Shown: positions 2,703 through 21,812, numbered from the stretch's first letter. The stretch: 64,000 nt of DNA from Escherichia coli (GCF_013315695.1 NZ_CP054355.1); one strand, 5' to 3'. The notes: generated from the letters alone by a model not told the origin. Numbers and translations: made by a program.

Positions 2703-3401
2703 AATCATGTCCAGATCCGGCAGAACCAGCCTCATGCGCAGTTCTGGCTGGTTTTTGACGTTGATCGCGAGGGGGCAGCGATTGACTGGAGCGACCGGAA
2801 CGCTCCCGCGCCGAACATCACCGTAAAAAATCCTGTGAACGGTCATGCTCACCTGCTCTACGCGCTCAATATCGCCGTGAGAACCGCGCCGGACAGCTCG
2901 GTTAAGGCGCTGAAATACGCCGCTGCGATTGAACGTTCGCTGTGTGAGAAACTTTGTGCTGATGTGAACTACAGCGGACTGATTTGTAAAAATCCGTTCC
3001 ACCTGGAATGGCAGGTGATGGAGTGGCGAGAGGAAGCCTATACCCTCGATGAACTGGCTGATTATCTCGATTTGAGCGCCTCAGCGCGCCGTAGCATCGA
3101 TAAACATTACGGGATGGGGCGAAACTGCCACCTGTTCGAAATGACGCGCAAATGGGCTTACAGGGCGATTCGTCAGGGCTGGCCCGAATTCTCACAGTGG
3201 CTTGATGCCGTGATTCAGCGTGTCGAAATGTACAACGCATCGCTTCCCGTTCCGCTTTCACCGCCTGAATGTCGGGCTATTGGCAAGAGCATTGCGAAAT
3301 ACACGCACAGGAACTTCACGCCGGAAACTTTCGCACAGTATGTGGCTGATACGCACACATTAACGTACGTTTTCGTTCCATTGGCCCTCACCCCCCGATA
3401 A
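2703..3401 (+). pseudogene. ColE2-type plasmid Rep (primase-type initiator) remnant, lacking N-terminus and C-terminal DNA-binding region
   Basis: In-frame translation from the stop at 2700 gives ...FWLVFDVDREGAAIDWSDRNAPAPNITVKNP..NGHAHLLYAL..ICKNPFHLEWQ.., as remembered for ColE2 Rep; no ATG/GTG/TTG start before the GTG at 2835; protein ends early. Confidence 0.55.
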
Positions 3402-3637: not shown

Positions 3638-3657
3638 GGTAATGATAATCATTTACA
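3638..3657. promoter_or_regulatory. Fur box upstream of cjrA
   Basis: ggtaatgataatcatttac closely matches the Fur consensus GATAATGATAATCATTATC. Confidence 0.6.
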
Positions 3658-3732
3658 TTCATTCTTTGATGTTTTATCATAATTAATGTTTTGTCAATAA
3701 ATATATGGAAACATATTGTTTCAGATGGGAAT

Positions 3733-4608
3733 ATGAGAAAGTTCATCCTTATTTCTATGATAACGTTAGCTAGTGTTAGTCTGGGAGCCTGCAGACAGAA
3801 TGTCACCATAAAGCAGGATGCGCCAGGGCAGAAAGCTTTCCTGACTGACGGGCAGATTTACGATTTGCACAGTGGCAAAATTATTTCTAGCAGCGAGCTT
3901 TTGGCGGATCTTGCTACCGCTCAACATCTTATTATTGGTGAAAAACACGATAATGCCGAGCATCATCAGATTGAGCTTTGGCTTATTCAAAATTTGCTCA
4001 TCCAGCGACCACAGGGGAGTGTGTTGCTTGAGATGTTGACGTCAGAGCAACAGCCCCGAGTTAACCAAGTTAAATGTTGGCTGAAAGATAATCCTGTGGT
4101 TCGAGATAGCCGTGTTCAGGAACTACTTAACTGGCAAAAAGGGTGGTCCTGGGAGATGTATGGCGACATCGTCATGCAGCTATTACGTGGGCCTTACCCG
4201 CTGCTCAATGCCAACATTGGCCGGGAGCAGATATTGGCACTGTACAAAAAAAACGAATTTCCTAAAGGAAAAAAATCCACTGCACCTGTGGTACAAGAAG
4301 CTCTGCGTGAAACCATCATATCTATGCATGAAGGCAACCTTGAAAGCCAGCAACTGACGTCAATGCTCTCTATTCAGCAGCAGCGGGATCGCTACATGGC
4401 CCGCCAGCTTCTGAGTGCCCCGGTACCGTCGTTGTTGATTGCAGGTGGTTATCACGCGTCAAAAAGCATGGGCGTACCGTTACACATGGAAGATCTTGCC
4501 ACCGGCACCCATCCAGTGGTGTTGATGCTTGCAGAAAAAGGAATGAACATCACAGTAGATCATGCTGACTACGTGTGGTTTGTAGCGCCAGATACAACAA
4601 AAAGGTAA
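3733..4608 (+). CDS. cjrA: ChaN-like haem/iron-binding lipoprotein (CjrA-like)
   Basis: Signal peptide with lipobox-like SLGAC; size and position 5' of a TonB homologue and a TonB-dependent receptor as in the cjrABC-senB cluster. Confidence 0.55.
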   Translation: MRKFILISMITLASVSLGACRQNVTIKQDAPGQKAFLTDGQIYDLHSGKIISSSELLADLATAQHLIIGEKHDNAEHHQIELWLIQNLLIQRPQGSVLLEMLTSEQQPRVNQVKCWLKDNPVVRDSRVQELLNWQKGWSWEMYGDIVMQLLRGPYPLLNANIGREQILALYKKNEFPKGKKSTAPVVQEALRETIISMHEGNLESQQLTSMLSIQQQRDRYMARQLLSAPVPSLLIAGGYHASKSMGVPLHMEDLATGTHPVVLMLAEKGMNITVDHADYVWFVAPDTTKR

Positions 4609-4615
4609 ACCATGG

Positions 4616-5392
4616 ATGATGAATATTCTCCACTTCTCACAGTCGGTAAAATGGAGCAGCTGGTTTATCTGTTCTCTACTGCTTCATGGACTGATTTTCC
4701 TTGCGTTTATCTGGCGTTTTTCCGAAGTTCAGCCCGCTATGTCTCCTGCACCGGCGATCATGCTGCAATGGGCAGAAATTATAGAGGCTCCTTCTTCTCC
4801 ACTTTCGCTTCCGGTGGGAATCGCTCAACAGGAGTCCGCAGTGACAGAAGAAAAGCAACAAACTGAGGACAGACAACAACGTCCTGTCACTGAAGACAGT
4901 GATGCAACCATTGAAATAACTAGGAAGAAAAAGTCATCCGATGGAGAAAAGAAAAAGACACGTCCACCTCGTAAGATAAAGGCTCAAACCAGCGACAGCA
5001 ACCCCACAGCCGTTTCCAGTAATGCTGCACCTCAGGCTCTGGTCGAATCGTCCCGTATTGCTGCGCCTTTTAACAGTGACTCAACAAAGCGAGATAATTC
5101 TGAGGCATCTTGGGAAAGCAGAGTAAAAGGCCACCTAAACCGTTATAAACGTTACCCTGGCGATGCCAGAAAACGTGCACGAACCGGCACAGCCGTCGTG
5201 ACTTTTACCGTAAACACGGAAGGCACTATTGTCAGTAGTTTCTTGGAAATCTCTTCAGGAACCTTTTCTCTTGACCGCGAAGCTATTGCTGTTTTAGAAC
5301 GCGCTCAACCACTTCCCAAACCACCGCCTGAAATATTGGAGGGAGGATTATTTAAAGTAAAAATGCCGATTACCTTTAAGTTGAAGGAGTAA
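4616..5392 (+). CDS. cjrB: TonB-family energy transducer (CjrB-like)
   Basis: N-terminal membrane anchor, charged linker, C-terminal TonB-like domain (..GTAVVTFTVNTEGTIV...PLPKPP); 258 aa. Confidence 0.65.
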   Translation: MMNILHFSQSVKWSSWFICSLLLHGLIFLAFIWRFSEVQPAMSPAPAIMLQWAEIIEAPSSPLSLPVGIAQQESAVTEEKQQTEDRQQRPVTEDSDATIEITRKKKSSDGEKKKTRPPRKIKAQTSDSNPTAVSSNAAPQALVESSRIAAPFNSDSTKRDNSEASWESRVKGHLNRYKRYPGDARKRARTGTAVVTFTVNTEGTIVSSFLEISSGTFSLDREAIAVLERAQPLPKPPPEILEGGLFKVKMPITFKLKE

Positions 5393-5560
5393 AGGGATAA
5401 TTGGCCGTTCAAGTTCATTTAACTGAAATTTAATTTTCATTTTTATGCTGAACATTTTATCAAACTTTTCCACTGTCAAAAAAATCAAAAAGACAGTAGA
5501 ACATAATTAATAAACAAATAGTTATACTTATCTTTATTAATATTATACCCAAGGAAATTT

Positions 5561-7822
5561 ATGAACGTTATAAAACTGGCTATCGGCTCAGGCATATTAT
5601 TGCTCAGCTGCGGTGCTTACTCACAATCCATCAGTGAAAAAACTAATTCCGACAAAAAAGGAGCGGCAGAATTCAGTCCGCTCAGCGTTTCTGTCGGGAA
5701 GACGACCAGTGAGCAGGAAGCTCTCGAGAAAACAGGCGCGACCAGTTCCCGGACAACGGACAAAAACCTGCAATCACTTGACGCAACAGTGCGTAGTATG
5801 CCTGGTACTTATACTCAAATAGATCCTGGTCAGGGAGCAATCAGTGTGAATATTCGAGGCATGAGCGGATTTGGTCGTGTAAACACTATGGTCGATGGTA
5901 TTACCCAGAGTTTTTACGGAACCTCTACCTCCGGAACAACGACGCATGGTTCAACTAACAATATGGCTGGCGTACTTATAGATCCTAACTTACTGGTAGC
6001 AGTTGATGTTACACGCGGTGACAGCAGTGGCTCTGAAGGGATCAACGCCCTTGCCGGTAGTGCAAATATGCGTACTATTGGCGTTGACGATGTAATATTT
6101 AACGGTAATACATATGGCCTTCGTTCACGTTTCTCTGTCGGTAGTAATGGGCTGGGACGCAGCGGAATGATCGCCCTTGGTGGAAAAAGCGACGCTTTTA
6201 CGGATACGGGAAGCATTGGCGTTATGGCTGCTGTGAGCGGCAGTTCTGTGTACTCTAATTTCTCAAATGGTTCTGGAATTAACAGCAAAGAGTTTGGTTA
6301 TGATAAATATATGAAGCAGAACCCCAAATCCCAACTGTATAAAATGGATATCAGACCAGACGAATTTAACAGCTTCGAACTTTCCGCTCGAACCTATGAA
6401 AATAAATTTACACGTCGTGATATAACCAGTGACGACTATTACATTAAATATCATTACACCCCTTTTTCTGAATTAATTGACTTTAACGTAACGGCCAGTA
6501 CCAGTCGCGGTAATCAAAAGTATCGTGATGGCTCGCTGTATACTTTCTACAAAACCTCAGCGCAAAATCGTTCTGACGCGCTGGATATCAACAATACCAG
6601 CCGGTTCACTGTCGCGGACAATGACCTGGAGTTTATGCTGGGCAGCAAACTGATGCGTACCCGCTATGACCGGACCATTCACTCAGCGGCGGGCGACCCG
6701 AAAGCGAATCAGGAATCGATCGAGAACAATCCGTTCGCACCCTCCGGCCAGCAGGATATTTCAGCGCTGTATACCGGGCTGAAGGTTACGCGCGGCATCT
6801 GGGAGGCAGATTTCAATCTCAACTACACACGTAACAGGATCACAGGGTACAAGCCCGCCTGCGATTCACGCGTTATCTGCGTGCCACAGGGTAGCTACGA
6901 TATTGACGATAAAGAGGGTGGCTTCAACCCTTCAGTTCAGCTTTCTGCTCAGGTAACACCATGGCTTCAGCCGTTCATTGGCTACAGCAAATCCATGCGC
7001 GCCCCGAACATCCAGGAGATGTTCTTCTCTAATTCAGGAGGCGCATCCATGAACCCATTCCTGAAGCCTGAACGTGCAGAAACCTGGCAGGCGGGTTTTA
7101 ACATTGATACCAGAGATTTACTGGTCGAACAGGATGCCCTGCGCTTTAAGGCTCTGGCGTACCGCAGCAGGATCCAGAACTACATCTACAGCGAGTCTTA
7201 TCTGGTTTGTTCTGGAGGTCGTAAATGCAGTCTGCCTGAGGTGATTGGCAATGGCTGGGAGGGCATTAGCGATGAATACAGCGACAATATGTACATCTAC
7301 GTTAACTCGGCAAGCGACGTTATCGCAAAGGGCTTCGAACTGGAGATGGATTATGATGCAGGTTTTGCTTTTGGCCGACTCTCTTTCAGCCAGCAGCAAA
7401 CAGACCAGCCAACCTCCATCGCCAGCACCCACTTTGGCGCAGGGGATATAACCGAACTGCCCAGAAAATACATGACGCTGGATACTGGTGTTCGCTTCTT
7501 CGATAACGCGTTGACCCTGGGCACTATCATAAAATACACAGGCAAGGCTCGTCGCCTGTCGCCTGATTTTGAGCAGGACGAACATACCGGCGCAATAATC
7601 AAACAGGATTTGCCGCAGATCCCAACGATTATCGATCTCTATGGTACTTACGAGTACAACCGCAACCTGACACTGAAACTTTCGGTACAAAACCTGATGA
7701 ACAGAGATTATTCGGAGGCGCTGAATAAGCTCAACATGATGCCAGGTCTTGGTGACGAGACCCACCCAGCCAATTCCGCGCGTGGCAGAACATGGATATT
7801 TGGCGGGGACATTCGTTTCTGA
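5561..7822 (+). CDS. cjrC: TonB-dependent outer-membrane receptor (CjrC-like)
   Basis: 753 aa, signal peptide, C-terminal ...GGDIRF ending in aromatic residue typical of TonB-dependent receptors. Confidence 0.7.
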   Translation: MNVIKLAIGSGILLLSCGAYSQSISEKTNSDKKGAAEFSPLSVSVGKTTSEQEALEKTGATSSRTTDKNLQSLDATVRSMPGTYTQIDPGQGAISVNIRGMSGFGRVNTMVDGITQSFYGTSTSGTTTHGSTNNMAGVLIDPNLLVAVDVTRGDSSGSEGINALAGSANMRTIGVDDVIFNGNTYGLRSRFSVGSNGLGRSGMIALGGKSDAFTDTGSIGVMAAVSGSSVYSNFSNGSGINSKEFGYDKYMKQNPKSQLYKMDIRPDEFNSFELSARTYENKFTRRDITSDDYYIKYHYTPFSELIDFNVTASTSRGNQKYRDGSLYTFYKTSAQNRSDALDINNTSRFTVADNDLEFMLGSKLMRTRYDRTIHSAAGDPKANQESIENNPFAPSGQQDISALYTGLKVTRGIWEADFNLNYTRNRITGYKPACDSRVICVPQGSYDIDDKEGGFNPSVQLSAQVTPWLQPFIGYSKSMRAPNIQEMFFSNSGGASMNPFLKPERAETWQAGFNIDTRDLLVEQDALRFKALAYRSRIQNYIYSESYLVCSGGRKCSLPEVIGNGWEGISDEYSDNMYIYVNSASDVIAKGFELEMDYDAGFAFGRLSFSQQQTDQPTSIASTHFGAGDITELPRKYMTLDTGVRFFDNALTLGTIIKYTGKARRLSPDFEQDEHTGAIIKQDLPQIPTIIDLYGTYEYNRNLTLKLSVQNLMNRDYSEALNKLNMMPGLGDETHPANSARGRTWIFGGDIRF

Positions 7823-7890
7823 TGACAATTTCCGCTAGGTTCAGACAATACGTTTTCTCTCTTATGTCAATTTTATTGCAGGAACGAAAA

Positions 7891-9066
7891 ATGAATATTT
7901 TCACTTTATCCAAAGCACCGCTATACCTGTTAATTTCACTATTTTTACCCACGATGGCCATGGCTATCGATCCACCTGAACGCGAACTTTCGCGATTTGC
8001 CCTGAAAACGAATTACCTTCAGTCCCCTGATGAAGGCGTCTATGAACTGGCGTTTGATAATGCCAGTAAAAAGGTGTTTGCAGCAGTCACCGATCGTGTA
8101 AATCGTGAAGCCAATAAAGGCTATCTGTATTCGTTTAATTCAGATTCGCTGAAAGTCGAAAATAAATACACGATGCCATACCGGGCATTTTCGCTGGCGA
8201 TAAATCAGGATAAACATCAGCTCTATATCGGACACACCCAGTCAGCGTCCCTGCGTATCAGTATGTTTGACACCCCAACCGGCAAACTGGTAAGAACCAG
8301 CGACAGGTTAAGTTTTAAAGCGGCAAACGCTGCAGATTCGCGTTTTGAGCATTTTCGCCATATGGTTTACAGCCAGGATTCCGATACCCTGTTTGTGAGT
8401 TATAGCAATATGCTGAAAACGGCCGAGGGCATGAAGCCTCTGCATAAGCTGTTAATGCTCGACGGGACGACGCTTGCCTTAAAAGGCGAGGTTAAGGATG
8501 CTTACAAAGGTACAGCGTATGGTCTGACGATGGATGAAAAAACACAGAAAATCTACGTTGGCGGAAGAGATTACATCAACGAAATTGATGCGAAAAATCA
8601 GACGCTGCTGCGTACCATCCCGTTGAAAGATCCGAGACCACAAATCACAAGTGTGCAGAATCTGGCGGTGGACTCCGCTTCTGACCGTGCCTTTGTGGTG
8701 GTATTCGACCATGACGATCGTTCCGGTACAAAAGATGGACTCTATATTTTTGACTTACGCGACGGTAAACAGCTTGGCTATGTGCACACAGGAGCCGGAG
8801 CTAACGCGGTGAAATACAATCCGAAATATAACGAACTGTATGTCACCAACTTCACTAGCGGCACCATCAGCGTAGTGGATGCCACCAAATACAGCATCAC
8901 CCGTGAATTTAACATGCCGGTCTACCCAAACCAGATGGTGTTGTCGGACGATATGGATACCCTTTACATTGGCATCAAAGAAGGCTTTAACCGCGATTGG
9001 GATCCTGATGTGTTTGTGGAAGGAGCTAAAGAACGTATTCTGAGCATTGATTTGAAAAAGTCGTGA
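7891..9066 (+). CDS. senB: SenB/TieB-like secreted protein with YVTN-type beta-propeller repeats
   Basis: About 391 aa from MNIFTLSK with signal peptide; repeated KIYVGG / ELYVTNFTSG / LYIGI motifs; position after cjrC as in cjrABC-senB. Confidence 0.5.
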   Translation: MNIFTLSKAPLYLLISLFLPTMAMAIDPPERELSRFALKTNYLQSPDEGVYELAFDNASKKVFAAVTDRVNREANKGYLYSFNSDSLKVENKYTMPYRAFSLAINQDKHQLYIGHTQSASLRISMFDTPTGKLVRTSDRLSFKAANAADSRFEHFRHMVYSQDSDTLFVSYSNMLKTAEGMKPLHKLLMLDGTTLALKGEVKDAYKGTAYGLTMDEKTQKIYVGGRDYINEIDAKNQTLLRTIPLKDPRPQITSVQNLAVDSASDRAFVVVFDHDDRSGTKDGLYIFDLRDGKQLGYVHTGAGANAVKYNPKYNELYVTNFTSGTISVVDATKYSITREFNMPVYPNQMVLSDDMDTLYIGIKEGFNRDWDPDVFVEGAKERILSIDLKKS

Positions 9067-9339
9067 TCGGGGGGAAAAAACATGGGATAAAAACTCCGTT
9101 ATTCCACTAAACTGGCCGGACTAGGAAAAGCAAACATCTCTGTCCTGCCGGTACGCCTGTTACGCCGCTCCATGAGGCTGAGGAATCTCCAGAAAACGAG
9201 ACAGGCACAGCATTGTACGATCAACTGATTTGTGCCAATAATTAAATGAAATCACAGCTATGCCTGTTCATGGGGTTCTAGGCCGGAACCCCAGATTTTT
9301 CCGATTGTTTGTTTTCTAACTGATTATTCAGTAGTTTTA

Positions 9340-9443: not shown

Positions 9444-9588
9444 GAGAGCATGAAAAACCCTGGGGCAGTCACTGAATGAGGGACCAGCAGCGGTAAAATA
9501 ACCAGCATAATTTCTGCATGGTCGATTTTTATACCGTGACAGGCTGTTTTTTATACTTGCACCGATTCCCGGGCACACTTAGCCTGTG

Positions 9589-9865
9589 TCAGGCCGGCAT
9601 ATACCTCAGCAGACTGATATCCCGCGCGTTTTTCTTCAGCCCTGATACATTCAGCCCCGCAATGGCCCGGCGGTATACCATCCGGCCGCCGCACAGCACG
9701 CATTCGAACGGGTCACGACTCAGGAACTGTTTCACCATTTGTGCATAGCACACTTTCGCCACTGCTTCCGGTTTATCCATCCCCAGAGCACGGTACACCT
9801 GCGGCAGCTTCTCTCCACACACCCGGTTGGCAAGGAACCCGAAGTACCTCACCATCTTAAAAAAC
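9589..9865 (-). pseudogene. IS91-family-like transposase C-terminal fragment, N-terminally truncated by IS629
   Basis: ..VRYFGFLANR..CVLCGG.. resembles the C-terminal region of IS91/ISCR-type transposases; ORF abuts the IS629 end. Confidence 0.35.
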
Positions 9866-9919: not shown

Positions 9920-10246
9920 ATGACTAAAAATACTCGTTTTTCCCCCGAAGTCCGTCAACGGGCAGTCCGTATGGTTCTGGAAAGTCAGGGCGAATATGAC
10001 TCACAATGGGCGACAATTTGTTCCATTGCCCCAAAGATTGGCTGTACACCGGAGACTCTGCGTGTCTGGGTACGCCAGCATGAGCGGAATACCGGAGGCG
10101 GTGATGGCGGGCTCACCACCGCTGAACGTCAGCGTCTGAAAGAGCTGGAACGTGAAAATCGTGAACTGCGCCGCAGTAACGATATCCTTCGCCAGGCTTC
10201 CGCTTATTTTGCGAAGGCGGAGTTCGACCGCCTCTGGAAAAAGTGA
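9920..10246 (+). CDS. IS629 transposase OrfA
   Basis: [19 protein letters not shown]... HTH/leucine-zipper OrfA of the IS3 family. Confidence 0.8.
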
Positions 10247-11133
10247 TGCCACTGCTGGATAAGCTGCGTAAGCTGTACGGGGTCGGACCGGTATGCAGTG
10301 AACTACATATTGCCCCGTCAACGTATTACCACTGTCAGCAACAGCGACATCATCCTGATAAACGCAGTGCCCGTGCGCAGCGCGATGACTGGCTGAAGAA
10401 AGAGATACTGCGCGTATACGATGGGAATCATCAGGTATACGGTGTGCGTAAAGTCTGGCGTCAGTTGTTACGGGAAGGAATCAGGGTAGCCAGATGTACA
10501 GTGGCGCGCCTCATGGCGGTTATGGGACTTGCCGGTGTTCTCCGGGGTAAAAAGGTCCGCACTACCGTCAGCCGGAAAGCCGTTGCCGCAGGCGACCGCG
10601 TAAACCGTCAGTTTGTGGCAGAACGTCCTGACCAGTTGTGGGTGGCTGATTTTACTTACGTCAGCACATGGCAGGGGGTCGTCTATGTGGCGTTCATCAT
10701 TGATGTGTTTGCCGGATACATCGTGGGGTGGCGGGTCTCATCGTCTATGGAAACGACATTCGTGTTGGATGCTCTGGAGCAGGCGTTATGGGCCCGTCGA
10801 CCGTCCGGCACGGTCCATCACAGTGATAAAGGTTCTCAGTATGTATCGCTGGCCTACACACAGCGGCTTAAGGAAGCCGGATTACTGGCATCAACAGGAA
10901 GTACAGGCGACTCGTATGACAACGCGATGGCGGAGAACATCAATGGTCTTTACAAAGCGGAGGTAATACACCGTAAGAGCTGGAAAAACCGTGCAGAAGT
11001 GGAACTGGCCACACTCACGTGGGTGGACTGGTATAACAATCGACGATTGCTGGAAAGGCTGGGCCATACTCCTCCGGCAGAAGCAGAAAAAGCTTATTAT
11101 GCTTCCATCGGAAACGATGATCTGGCAGCCTGA
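10243..11133 (+). CDS. IS629 transposase OrfB (DDE catalytic domain)
   Basis: IS3-family OrfB overlapping orfA in the -1 frame. Confidence 0.8.
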
Positions 11134-19792: not shown

Positions 19793-19829
19793 ACGTATCC
19801 TCTCGTCTAAAACAACGGCTATACAACGA

Positions 19830-21776
19830 TTATGGGTTATTTTTTATCGTCTCCCCGGGAACCGCGCTTTTGCGCCGCATCACCCACAGCGCCACCAGCG
19901 CCGCGAGCAGCAATACGACCTGCGGTAACAACGTTTCCACGTAGGGATAAATCCCCAGCCAGCTGATTTCAGGGAAGCCGTTAATCAACGTAGGCTGGAA
20001 CAGTTTGCCTTCCACCAGTTCCAGAACGCCTTTGCCCGCAAAGACGAAGGCCATCAGATACATGAAACTGCCGGTAAACATAAAGAAGGGTTTCAGCGGC
20101 AGGCGCACCACTGAGTAACGCATCACCAGCCAGGCGAGCAGCAGCACCACGCAGCCAATCACAAAACCGGCGCCAATCGCCATATGGCCGGATACCGTGT
20201 TTGCATCGCCAATCAGAGCGTAATAGAACAGCACCGTTTCCGCCCCTTCGCGGTACACCGCCAGGAAGCTGGTCAGCCATAGTCCGACCAGGGAGCCTCG
20301 CGACAGGGAATGAGACAGTTTGCCTTCCAGCCAGGCTTTCCAGTGGCGCGCTTCCACTTTGGACAGCAGCCAGTAACTCATAAAGAACAGCATCACGACG
20401 GCAATCAGCATCGTTATGCCTTCCAGCAGTTCACGGCTGGCGCCGGAGTTAGTAAACAGCATCTGGAAGATAGCGGCGGTGATGACGCTGGCGATCAGCG
20501 CCACAATTACCGACTGACGAATAAGCGGCAGCTTATCCTGATGGTTGTTTTTCACCATGTAGGCCACGATTGCCGCAACAATCAGCAGCGCTTCCAGCCC
20601 CTCGCGCACGATGATCATCAGACTATAGAGCAGCAGACTCCACTGGGTTTCTTCGCCTTCGCCCAGCATCGTCACGGCTTTTTGCAGATCCTGCGCCAGC
20701 GCGCTGGCCTCTGCATTCAGGCGCTCAACCGGCTGACCGGCCTTCATCAGACTGACCAGGCGGGTAAAATACGCCTCCAGCGTGGTTTTAAATGCCGAAT
20801 CGCGAGAGCCGATTTTGTTTTCCATGCCGCTGGCTTCGAAGCGGTCGAAGTAGGTATCCTGGATATCCAGAATCGCATTCTTCGCATCGCCGCCCTGATA
20901 GCGCGCTATCGCGTCCTGAATGCTCTGGTTAATTCCCGTCGTCACCTCAGCCCAGTCGGTGCGGTTATTTCCCTCGTCCGCCGCCGGAATGTTGTCTGCG
21001 CTTTGCGCTGCGGCAACCTGCTGATCGTCACGGGTGGTTGGCAAGCCGGGTAAGATATCCTCGATATCCTGTAGCAGCGTAGTGACCTGATAGGAGACAT
21101 CGTTGAGATGGTCAGGTTGCGCGGTCAGCGCAATCAGGGATGAGAATTGTTGGTTAATGGAGGCGGCATCTTTTGCAGAACGGTTTTGTCTGAGGGACAT
21201 CTCCATCTCAGAGTTTTTAAAGCCCTGATAGTGCGCCTGTTGAACGTGCTGACTGGCAACGCTGTAATTCCCGGCCTGATATTCAGTGACCGCCTGCGCC
21301 AGCAGATCGTCGATCGTCCTGAAACTCTCCTGCCAGTGAACGGCAATGTCGTCCCTGGACAGCGCGTTGTGCTGCTCTTCGGCCACCAGACGATGTCCGC
21401 CATCCAGCACCGGTTCCACTTCGCGCAGTGCGGCTTTCAGCCAGTCAATGCGCGCCTGGACGTCAGCGAGCGGTTTTTTCTCGCCAATCATTCGACGGAT
21501 CTCGCCGAATGCGCTCTCCATCTCGTAACTTTTGCGCGCGGAAATGTTGATGCGGATCGGCCCTTCCAGGTTCTCGAACACCTCAAAATAGGCCATTTGT
21601 ACCGTGCGGCGCGCCTCGTCGGCATGCTGTTGCTGATAAAGTTCCGCTGTTTTATCAAGACGTTGCTCGATATCTTCAATCAAAGGCGCATAATTCGTCG
21701 ACGCCCAGACACTCATGCTTATAAACAAGCCAAAGAGAGTAACCAACAAAGAGTTACGGAAGTTACGCACGTGCAC
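19830..21776 (-). CDS. fetM: FTR1-family iron permease with large N-terminal periplasmic domain (FetM-like)
   Basis: 648 aa; two RExxE motifs (REGLE, REGAE) in the C-terminal membrane domain. Confidence 0.7.
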   Translation of the reverse strand: MHVRNFRNSLLVTLFGLFISMSVWASTNYAPLIEDIEQRLDKTAELYQQQHADEARRTVQMAYFEVFENLEGPIRINISARKSYEMESAFGEIRRMIGEKKPLADVQARIDWLKAALREVEPVLDGGHRLVAEEQHNALSRDDIAVHWQESFRTIDDLLAQAVTEYQAGNYSVASQHVQQAHYQGFKNSEMEMSLRQNRSAKDAASINQQFSSLIALTAQPDHLNDVSYQVTTLLQDIEDILPGLPTTRDDQQVAAAQSADNIPAADEGNNRTDWAEVTTGINQSIQDAIARYQGGDAKNAILDIQDTYFDRFEASGMENKIGSRDSAFKTTLEAYFTRLVSLMKAGQPVERLNAEASALAQDLQKAVTMLGEGEETQWSLLLYSLMIIVREGLEALLIVAAIVAYMVKNNHQDKLPLIRQSVIVALIASVITAAIFQMLFTNSGASRELLEGITMLIAVVMLFFMSYWLLSKVEARHWKAWLEGKLSHSLSRGSLVGLWLTSFLAVYREGAETVLFYYALIGDANTVSGHMAIGAGFVIGCVVLLLAWLVMRYSVVRLPLKPFFMFTGSFMYLMAFVFAGKGVLELVEGKLFQPTLINGFPEISWLGIYPYVETLLPQVVLLLAALVALWVMRRKSAVPGETIKNNP

Positions 21777-21790
21777 ACCGCCAAAGAATG

Positions 21791-21812
21791 CAAATGATAA
21801 TTATTATCATAT
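21791..21812. promoter_or_regulatory. Fur box upstream of the fetM-like operon
   Basis: aatgataattattatcat, near-palindromic match to the Fur consensus, about 15 bp upstream of the fetM start. Confidence 0.6.

Follow-up and report, generated by a model that had tools for sequence, protein, structure and literature searches.

SenB of the Escherichia coli cjrABC-senB cluster is a predicted YncE-family beta-propeller and a candidate partner in TonB-dependent iron or haem uptake

Introduction

The four-gene cjrABC-senB cluster of pUTI89-like IncF plasmids occupies positions 3638-9066 of a 64,000-nucleotide (nt) stretch of Escherichia coli DNA (GCF_013315695.1, NZ_CP054355.1; hereafter the window). 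Although the plasmid literature treats its last gene, senB (also called tieB), as an enterotoxin gene, our analysis suggests that this Fur-repressed cluster is probably a self-contained TonB-dependent uptake device, in which SenB is an envelope accessory to the receptor and not a toxin. Sequence and modelled structure place SenB in the YncE family, as an exported beta-propeller with seven blades. A role as a periplasmic partner in iron or haem uptake, which an initial annotation of the window had considered a better fit than a classical enterotoxin, is supported by homology, fold and gene context. Genes were called from a listing of open reading frames (ORFs) together with domain-model searches (Pfam, NCBIfam/TIGR), and window coordinates are used throughout.

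Results

The senB gene (7891-9066, + strand) encodes a protein of 391 amino acids (aa). Its N-terminus, MNIFTLSKAPLYLLISLFLPTMAMA/IDPP, has a charged n-region, a hydrophobic core and an AxA site, with cleavage after AMA; judged by inspection, SenB thus appears to carry a Sec signal peptide, in line with the signal peptide noted in the initial annotation. The same annotation had described repeated YVTN-type motifs. Seven repeats with the pattern hydrophobic-Y/F-V/I ... hydrophobic-x-hydrophobic-D are indeed visible, but only one of them reached the YVTN repeat model TIGR02276, and weakly (E 8e-4; score 19 bits, cut-off 28). The propeller assignment is based on whole-protein matches and on the fold rather than on the repeat model.

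The best family model for SenB was YncE (NCBIfam NF052280, E 2.2e-46), which aligned residues 44-368 with model positions 23-323 of 338. Because the score of 158 bits lies under the equivalog cut-off of 400 bits, we regard SenB as a paralogue of YncE and not as an equivalog. Among PDB sequences, E. coli YncE was matched at E 2.7e-22 over residues 45-368. A Pfam search at E <=0.1 gave no match to the YNCE family PF21783 and detected no ankyrin or toxin domain; it returned propeller families only, all sub-threshold, including SGL/gluconolactonase (PF08450; E 6e-4, 20.0 bits against a gathering cut-off of 26.3) and Lactonase (PF10282; E 0.026, 14.2 bits against 21.7). One further curated family model scored 34.5 bits against a cut-off of 287.3, with the match limited to residues 282-357.

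An AlphaFold model of SenB, built from an alignment of 59 family members, had a predicted local distance difference test (pLDDT) score of 89.9 and a predicted template-modelling (pTM) score of 0.86. It is all-beta, with 28 strands forming seven four-stranded blades. In a Foldseek search with this model, YncE was the best match by a wide margin (E 1e-25, TM 0.89), and generic WD40 propellers followed at E 1e-14. A beta-propeller fold had been set beforehand as the test of the proposal, and the prediction bore it out, with YncE as the closest relative. Resemblance to YncE rather than to the ankyrin-type ShET2 had likewise been a test, and it is to YncE that the YncE matches, the Pfam result and the all-beta fold all point. 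ShET2 (Sen/OspD3) shares with SenB only a similar gene name and carriage on plasmids of Shigella and enteroinvasive E. coli (EIEC); no domain, ankyrin or otherwise, links the two, and SenB is predicted to fold as a propeller, a separation made by domains and fold.

Compared with E. coli YncE (PDB 3vgz, 3vh0, 7seu), to which it is 22-24% identical, SenB is about 40 residues longer and has a long hairpin in blade 3 and extra loops on the top face. It shares with YncE, whose own properties are taken from the literature, an export signal (by inspection), a Fur box and a neighbouring gene for a TonB-dependent receptor, here cjrC. YncE has been reported to be over-produced in a fur mutant and Sec-exported, and E. 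coli yncE is divergent from yncD/pqqU. SenB differs in that its partner receptor is of the haem-receptor kind rather than PqqU/YncD, and in that senB is plasmid-borne.

A search of 1.84 billion representative proteins yielded 1,792 relatives of SenB at E <=0.001. Since just 18 of these fell below 1e-30, the SenB clade is narrow; its full-length representatives are 63%, 44% and 39% identical to SenB, after which identity drops to the YncE-like level of about 30%. Eight residues are near-invariant across the family (Y51, E52, Y112, D127, R156, D261, D330 and K363), several of which look structural. Within the clade, the loops of the top face are more conserved than those of the bottom face (entropy 1.06 versus 1.40, with faces assigned by propeller topology rules). 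Clade-specific polar residues on the top face comprise D68, R69, R72, Q117, R122, E153, H157, H274, D276, D282, E364, W370 and K380.

A locus scan with the SenB-clade alignment found only 12 loci, the family-wide alignment being too diverse for such a scan; the gene neighbourhoods below include further homologues. At least ten further enterobacterial genomes carry chromosomal cjrA-cjrB-cjrC-senB in this order: Klebsiella aerogenes, Intestinirhabdus, Silvania (two species), Raoultella (two), Enterobacter (two), Pluralibacter and an uncultured Klebsiella. In Corticimicrobacter populi, chaN-senB is divergent from fecI-fecR and from a receptor gene whose product is 52% identical to CjrC and has a signalling (STN) domain. 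Cedecea colo and K. spallanzanii encode SenB homologues (62-64% identity) divergent from a receptor unrelated to CjrC, with PhuR as its best solved relative (E 4e-41), and a 39%-identical homologue is divergent from a ShuA/HasR-like receptor (E 3e-49). Two homologues of 44-46% identity are followed by an orphan gene of 129 aa and then by another receptor gene. Among relatives of about 30% identity with enough flanking DNA, two of four directly follow fecI-fecR-receptor genes.

Every SenB-clade relative with sufficient flanking DNA thus adjoins a TonB-dependent receptor. At least four lineages are represented among these partner receptors, three of them haem-receptor-like, and HasR, ShuA and PhuR are the best or near-best solved relatives of CjrC and of three other SenB-paired lineages. 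As the receptors are only 21-30% identical to one another, the pairing must have arisen, or been kept, with different receptors. The conserved 129-aa protein, encoded between the SenB-like and receptor genes of metagenomic loci L004 (locus positions 6679-7068) and L006 (2826-3215), had no Pfam match. An Fbp-like ATP-binding cassette (ABC) transporter was considered as a conserved inner-membrane partner and rejected, as it is divergent from the cluster in K. aerogenes and absent from the other loci. The cluster itself contains no inner-membrane permease.

In the window, a Fur box and promoter precede four genes on the same strand: cjrA, cjrB, cjrC and senB. This order, a ChaN-like lipoprotein, a TonB homologue, a TonB-dependent receptor and the 391-aa protein, agrees with the initial annotation, as does the presence of the Fur box (3638-3656, + strand; GGTAATGATAATCATTTAC), which matches the consensus GATAATGATAATCATTATC at 16 of 19 positions. 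It overlaps the -35 hexamer of the best promoter-like site, a sigma-70-like element at 3652-3680 (+ strand; TTTACA, 17-nt spacer, TATCAT; a consensus match scoring 10/12) whose -10 hexamer ends 53 nt before the cjrA ATG. Matches to the Fur box with up to three mismatches number three in the window, against 0.01 expected from shuffled sequence. Similar sites lie 5' of cjrA in 10 of 12 enterobacterial loci with the four-gene cluster, and also in the intergenic regions between the receptor and senB genes of Cedecea and K. spallanzanii; in several homologous loci the site is the sole one in 17 kb. As relayed in a 2020 paper that cites the original cjr study, the Fur box is functional and cjr is repressed by iron.

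The senB gene starts 68 nt after cjrC, with a good ribosome-binding site (AGGAA) 8 nt before its ATG. On the + strand, a single weak terminator-like site was found between cjrA and the end of senB, inside cjrC at 6227; the first strong one 3' of senB is a hairpin at 9271-9303 (+ strand), with a 9-bp stem including five GC pairs, followed by a T tract (GATTTTTCCG). An internal senB promoter was considered and rejected, the only match being a weak one at 7822-7849 in a region with nine promoter-like sites against 9.1 expected from shuffles. We infer that cjrABC-senB is one transcription unit in which senB is co-transcribed with cjrC. Between cjrB and cjrC lies an AT-rich spacer of 168 nt (5393-5560, + strand), which is unusually long for an operon and falls in the 400-nt bin with the lowest GC content of the region (0.355 at 5300-5699). 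An internal promoter might lie there, or else the element for temperature control hinted at by the title of a 2001 paper on cjrBC.

The first gene of the cluster, cjrA (3733-4608, + strand; lipobox LGAC), is annotated as a ChaN family lipoprotein. Its product scored 119 bits against PF04187 (ChaN/Cofac_haem_bdg; gathering cut-off 27.7) over profile positions 1-212 of 213, upholding the ChaN assignment of the initial annotation, and matched structure 2g5g, that of the haem-binding lipoprotein ChaN of Campylobacter jejuni, over nearly its full length (E 2.4e-31). CjrA is thus a ChaN-type lipoprotein, predicted to bind haem. Nine orthologues share invariant GEx-H, HH, E, RDR and GG-YH residues, which in the mature protein are G50, E51, H53, H58, H59, E62, R199, D200, R201, G219 and H222. 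Pfam places ChaN in the Tiki/erythromycin-esterase superfamily, whose active site is marked by paired GxxH motifs, and CjrA might therefore be catalytic rather than haem-binding alone.

The cjrB gene (4616-5392, + strand) encodes a dedicated TonB paralogue with a TonB C-terminal domain (TIGR01352, 68.5 bits against a cut-off of 27.1; PF03544). CjrC (5561-7822, + strand) is a TonB-dependent outer-membrane receptor with a plug and a beta-barrel, of the haem/haemoprotein-receptor kind. TonB-hemin (TIGR01785) was its best-scoring subfamily, yet at 255 bits the score lies under the cut-off of 316.85, and CjrC also scores under that of TIGR01786. Its closest solved chain is 9oaa_T, a 901-aa 'TonB-dependent receptor' (E 6e-83), and HasR (E 2e-28), ShuA-like receptors and the TbpA plug are further solved relatives; PqqU/YncD was not among its PDB matches. 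In the literature searched we found no paper mentioning entry 9oaa, whose plug domain has its nearest relatives in receptor fragments of Haemophilus influenzae and Histophilus somni; its ligand could point to the substrate class of CjrC.

Haem receptors are described as having a FRAP/NPNL box with an intervening histidine, plus a histidine in the plug. A (S/M)RAP...NPFLKPE box that resembles it is conserved in 12 CjrC orthologues. Unlike HasR, ShuA and PhuR, CjrC has no histidine between the two motifs, and H129, its sole invariant histidine, lies in the plug. The substrate of CjrC may plausibly be haem-like or another iron-bearing compound.

The region is the published cjrABC-senB cluster of pUTI89-like IncF plasmids, and shows no sequence difference from the cjrABC-senB of pUTI89, pRS218 and the invasion plasmids of EIEC and Shigella. 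Among the matches listed, three E. coli plasmids were 100% identical over 5,901 bases, and 521 plasmid records covered at least 80% of the cluster stretch. The identical plasmids are conjugative, pUTI89-like IncF plasmids of human E. coli isolates, and their records label the four genes in order as a ChaN lipoprotein, an energy transducer TonB, a TonB-dependent receptor and 'senB: enterotoxin production-related protein TieB'. About one in ten complete E. coli genomes carries senB (517 of 5,426), with an identity of at least 99% in 516 of them, and 520 of the 521 matching places are plasmid-borne.

On the 5' side of the cjr promoter, an ORF at 2835-3401 matched just the C-terminal part of Replicase PF03090 (profile 56-130 of 130) and PriCT_1; no gene is entered there in the partial gene table of PLSDB. 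By its domain content it looks like a shortened remnant of a small-plasmid replication gene. Downstream of the cluster lie two overlapping ORFs of an IS3-family transposase (9920-11133) and short ORFs that are possible insertion sequence (IS) remnants (9518-9855). Taken with the replicase remnant upstream, these downstream ORFs suggest that cjrABC-senB travels as a cargo island. In Intestinirhabdus, too, a transposase fragment lies on the 3' side of the chromosomal cluster.

The two other Fur-box matches in the window lie outside the cluster. One, at 21790-21808 (GCAAATGATAATTATTATC), is about 75 nt 5' of a minus-strand operon, in a region noted at 19829-21808 (coordinates transferred from a plasmid record by a constant offset). 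On an identical plasmid this operon is annotated as encoding an FTR1 family permease, an 'iron transporter', an Fe-S-containing protein, two ABC/FtsX permeases, an ABC ATPase and a TlpA-like reductase, and it looks like a second island for iron uptake carried by this plasmid. The other, at 844-862, has three mismatches and is intergenic, between a DUF6404 gene (minus strand, approximately 456-803) and a gene for a 'colicin E1 family microcin immunity protein' (approximately 932-1267).

Discussion

We propose that, under iron limitation, Fur would leave the cjr promoter and all four genes would be expressed. CjrC would act as an outer-membrane gate of the HasR/ShuA/PhuR-like haem-receptor kind that brings in the ligand, with CjrB as its own TonB energising import. 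CjrA, as a ChaN-type haem-binding lipoprotein, and SenB would then handle the ligand in the envelope. The top face of SenB may capture, hand over or process an imported iron- or haem-containing ligand; of these we favour capture or hand-over. A role for this face is favoured because its loops are the more conserved and the clade-specific polar residues lie there.

Several points weigh against this proposal. We know of no experiment that ties SenB or any YncE-family protein to transport. The partner receptors are so divergent (21-30% identity) that a single conserved protein-protein interface is hard to reconcile with them, and two of the four sampled relatives of about 30% identity had no receptor nearby. 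When CjrA and SenB were joined by a linker in one AlphaFold chain, both domains folded and their relative placement was not confident (pTM 0.55), a result that, with nine paired orthologues, a shallow alignment and a single-chain model, is uninformative rather than negative. The top and bottom faces of SenB were assigned by propeller topology rules instead of model coordinates. Deletion of yncE in E. coli has been reported to leave pyrroloquinoline quinone (PQQ) uptake through the neighbouring receptor as in the parent, and YncE has been found in culture supernatants and vesicles, so SenB may also be located outside the periplasm. The 2020 paper itself states that iron uptake by cjrABC-senB 'remains to be further confirmed'.

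A link to PQQ, taken from some database names, was considered separately and rejected: TIGR03866 scored far below its cut-off, CjrC did not match PqqU/YncD, and the yncE deletion has no PQQ phenotype.

SenB could instead be a periplasmic enzyme, such as a lactonase- or esterase-like hydrolase or an iron-releasing protein, that acts on the ligand imported by CjrC, with the iron then reaching an unrelated inner-membrane transporter. The cluster has no permease of its own, which leaves room for an enzymatic role, and an Fbp-like ABC transporter is adjacent in K. aerogenes only. The weak SGL/gluconolactonase and Lactonase matches point the same way, as do clade-specific His, Asp and Glu residues that are invariant and map to what is presumed to be the top face, and a lactonase role suggested for YncE in the literature. 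However, all of these domain matches are below their curated cut-offs, few residues are near-invariant across the family and several of those look structural, and no catalytic activity is known for YncE. We consider an enzymatic SenB rather unlikely.

It is quite improbable, in our judgement, that SenB has no transport role but is a binder of nucleic acid or of some other envelope component, or serves in structure or stress, and that it sits behind cjrC by a historical accident preserved through linkage on a mobile island. YncE has been crystallised with DNA (3vh0) and described as a single-stranded DNA binder, the yncE deletion shows no PQQ-uptake phenotype, and some distant relatives lack a neighbouring receptor. 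Against this, a Sec-exported protein would be an odd DNA binder. Adjacency to a receptor is also seen in six or more different gene arrangements, and the receptor lineages involved are unrelated, so linkage on one island cannot account for the pairing.

It seems highly improbable that SenB is truly an enterotoxin, or a factor in toxin production, that is secreted and acts on host epithelium after release. In favour of this reading, the name in RefSeq and AMRFinderPlus is 'enterotoxin production-related protein TieB', a plasmid paper credits SenB with 50% of enterotoxic activity (EIEC and Shigella; citing Nataro et al. 1995), and its homologue YncE is detectable in culture supernatants and vesicles and strongly immunogenic in patients. 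Against it, SenB is a predicted YncE-type propeller in which Pfam finds no toxin or ankyrin domain, the same transport genes and senB occur on the chromosomes of non-enteropathogenic genera such as Raoultella, Silvania and Corticimicrobacter, and SenB expressed alone had no effect in serum-survival assays (2020 paper). The 'enterotoxin' label is without support in the sequence, the modelled fold or the gene context. The 1995 study behind the toxin claim is said to describe the unrelated, larger ShET2 'sen' product.

The proposed uptake role for SenB has a partial parallel in C. jejuni, where, as in cjr, the gene for a ChaN lipoprotein (Cj0177) accompanies that for a TonB-dependent receptor (Cj0178, CtuA). 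That locus presumably also contains TonB-system genes and the cfbpABC transporter, and to our knowledge no YncE-like propeller has been described in it. Cj0178 is a reported receptor for iron bound to transferrin and lactoferrin. For the cjr system, earlier work as relayed in the 2020 paper describes a need for CjrB and CjrC in colicin Js uptake (with CjrC reported as the receptor), a contribution of the cluster to urinary tract infection, and homology of CjrA to PhuW.

Little of this is new in itself: the cjr cluster has been described before, and databases already give the family assignment. NCBI names the chromosomal orthologues (K. aerogenes, Raoultella, Leclercia and others) 'YncE family protein' or 'TieB', so the assignment to the YncE family was already public; in the literature searched, we found no paper that treats both senB and YncE. 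What we add is the result on the enterotoxin label, together with the consistent pairing of the SenB clade with haem-type receptors, which offers a testable lead for the YncE family. More tentatively, and with rather less confidence than we place in the uptake role of the cluster, YncE-family propellers including SenB may be an unrecognised class of envelope accessories for TonB-dependent transporters, mainly haem-type or FecIR-controlled receptors, that capture or process ligands in the periplasm.

In virulence typing of urinary and bloodstream E. coli, senB is scored as a 'plasmid-encoded enterotoxin'. If SenB is a transport accessory, readings of epidemiology and pathogenesis that treat senB as a toxin would be mislabelled, and the role of the cluster in the urinary tract would have to be sought in nutrient acquisition. 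The structure of YncE has been available since 2011, and the protein is a vaccine candidate. Should our proposal hold, the virulence marker 'senB enterotoxin' would be a misnamed component of iron or haem import, and the orphan protein YncE would gain a functional context.

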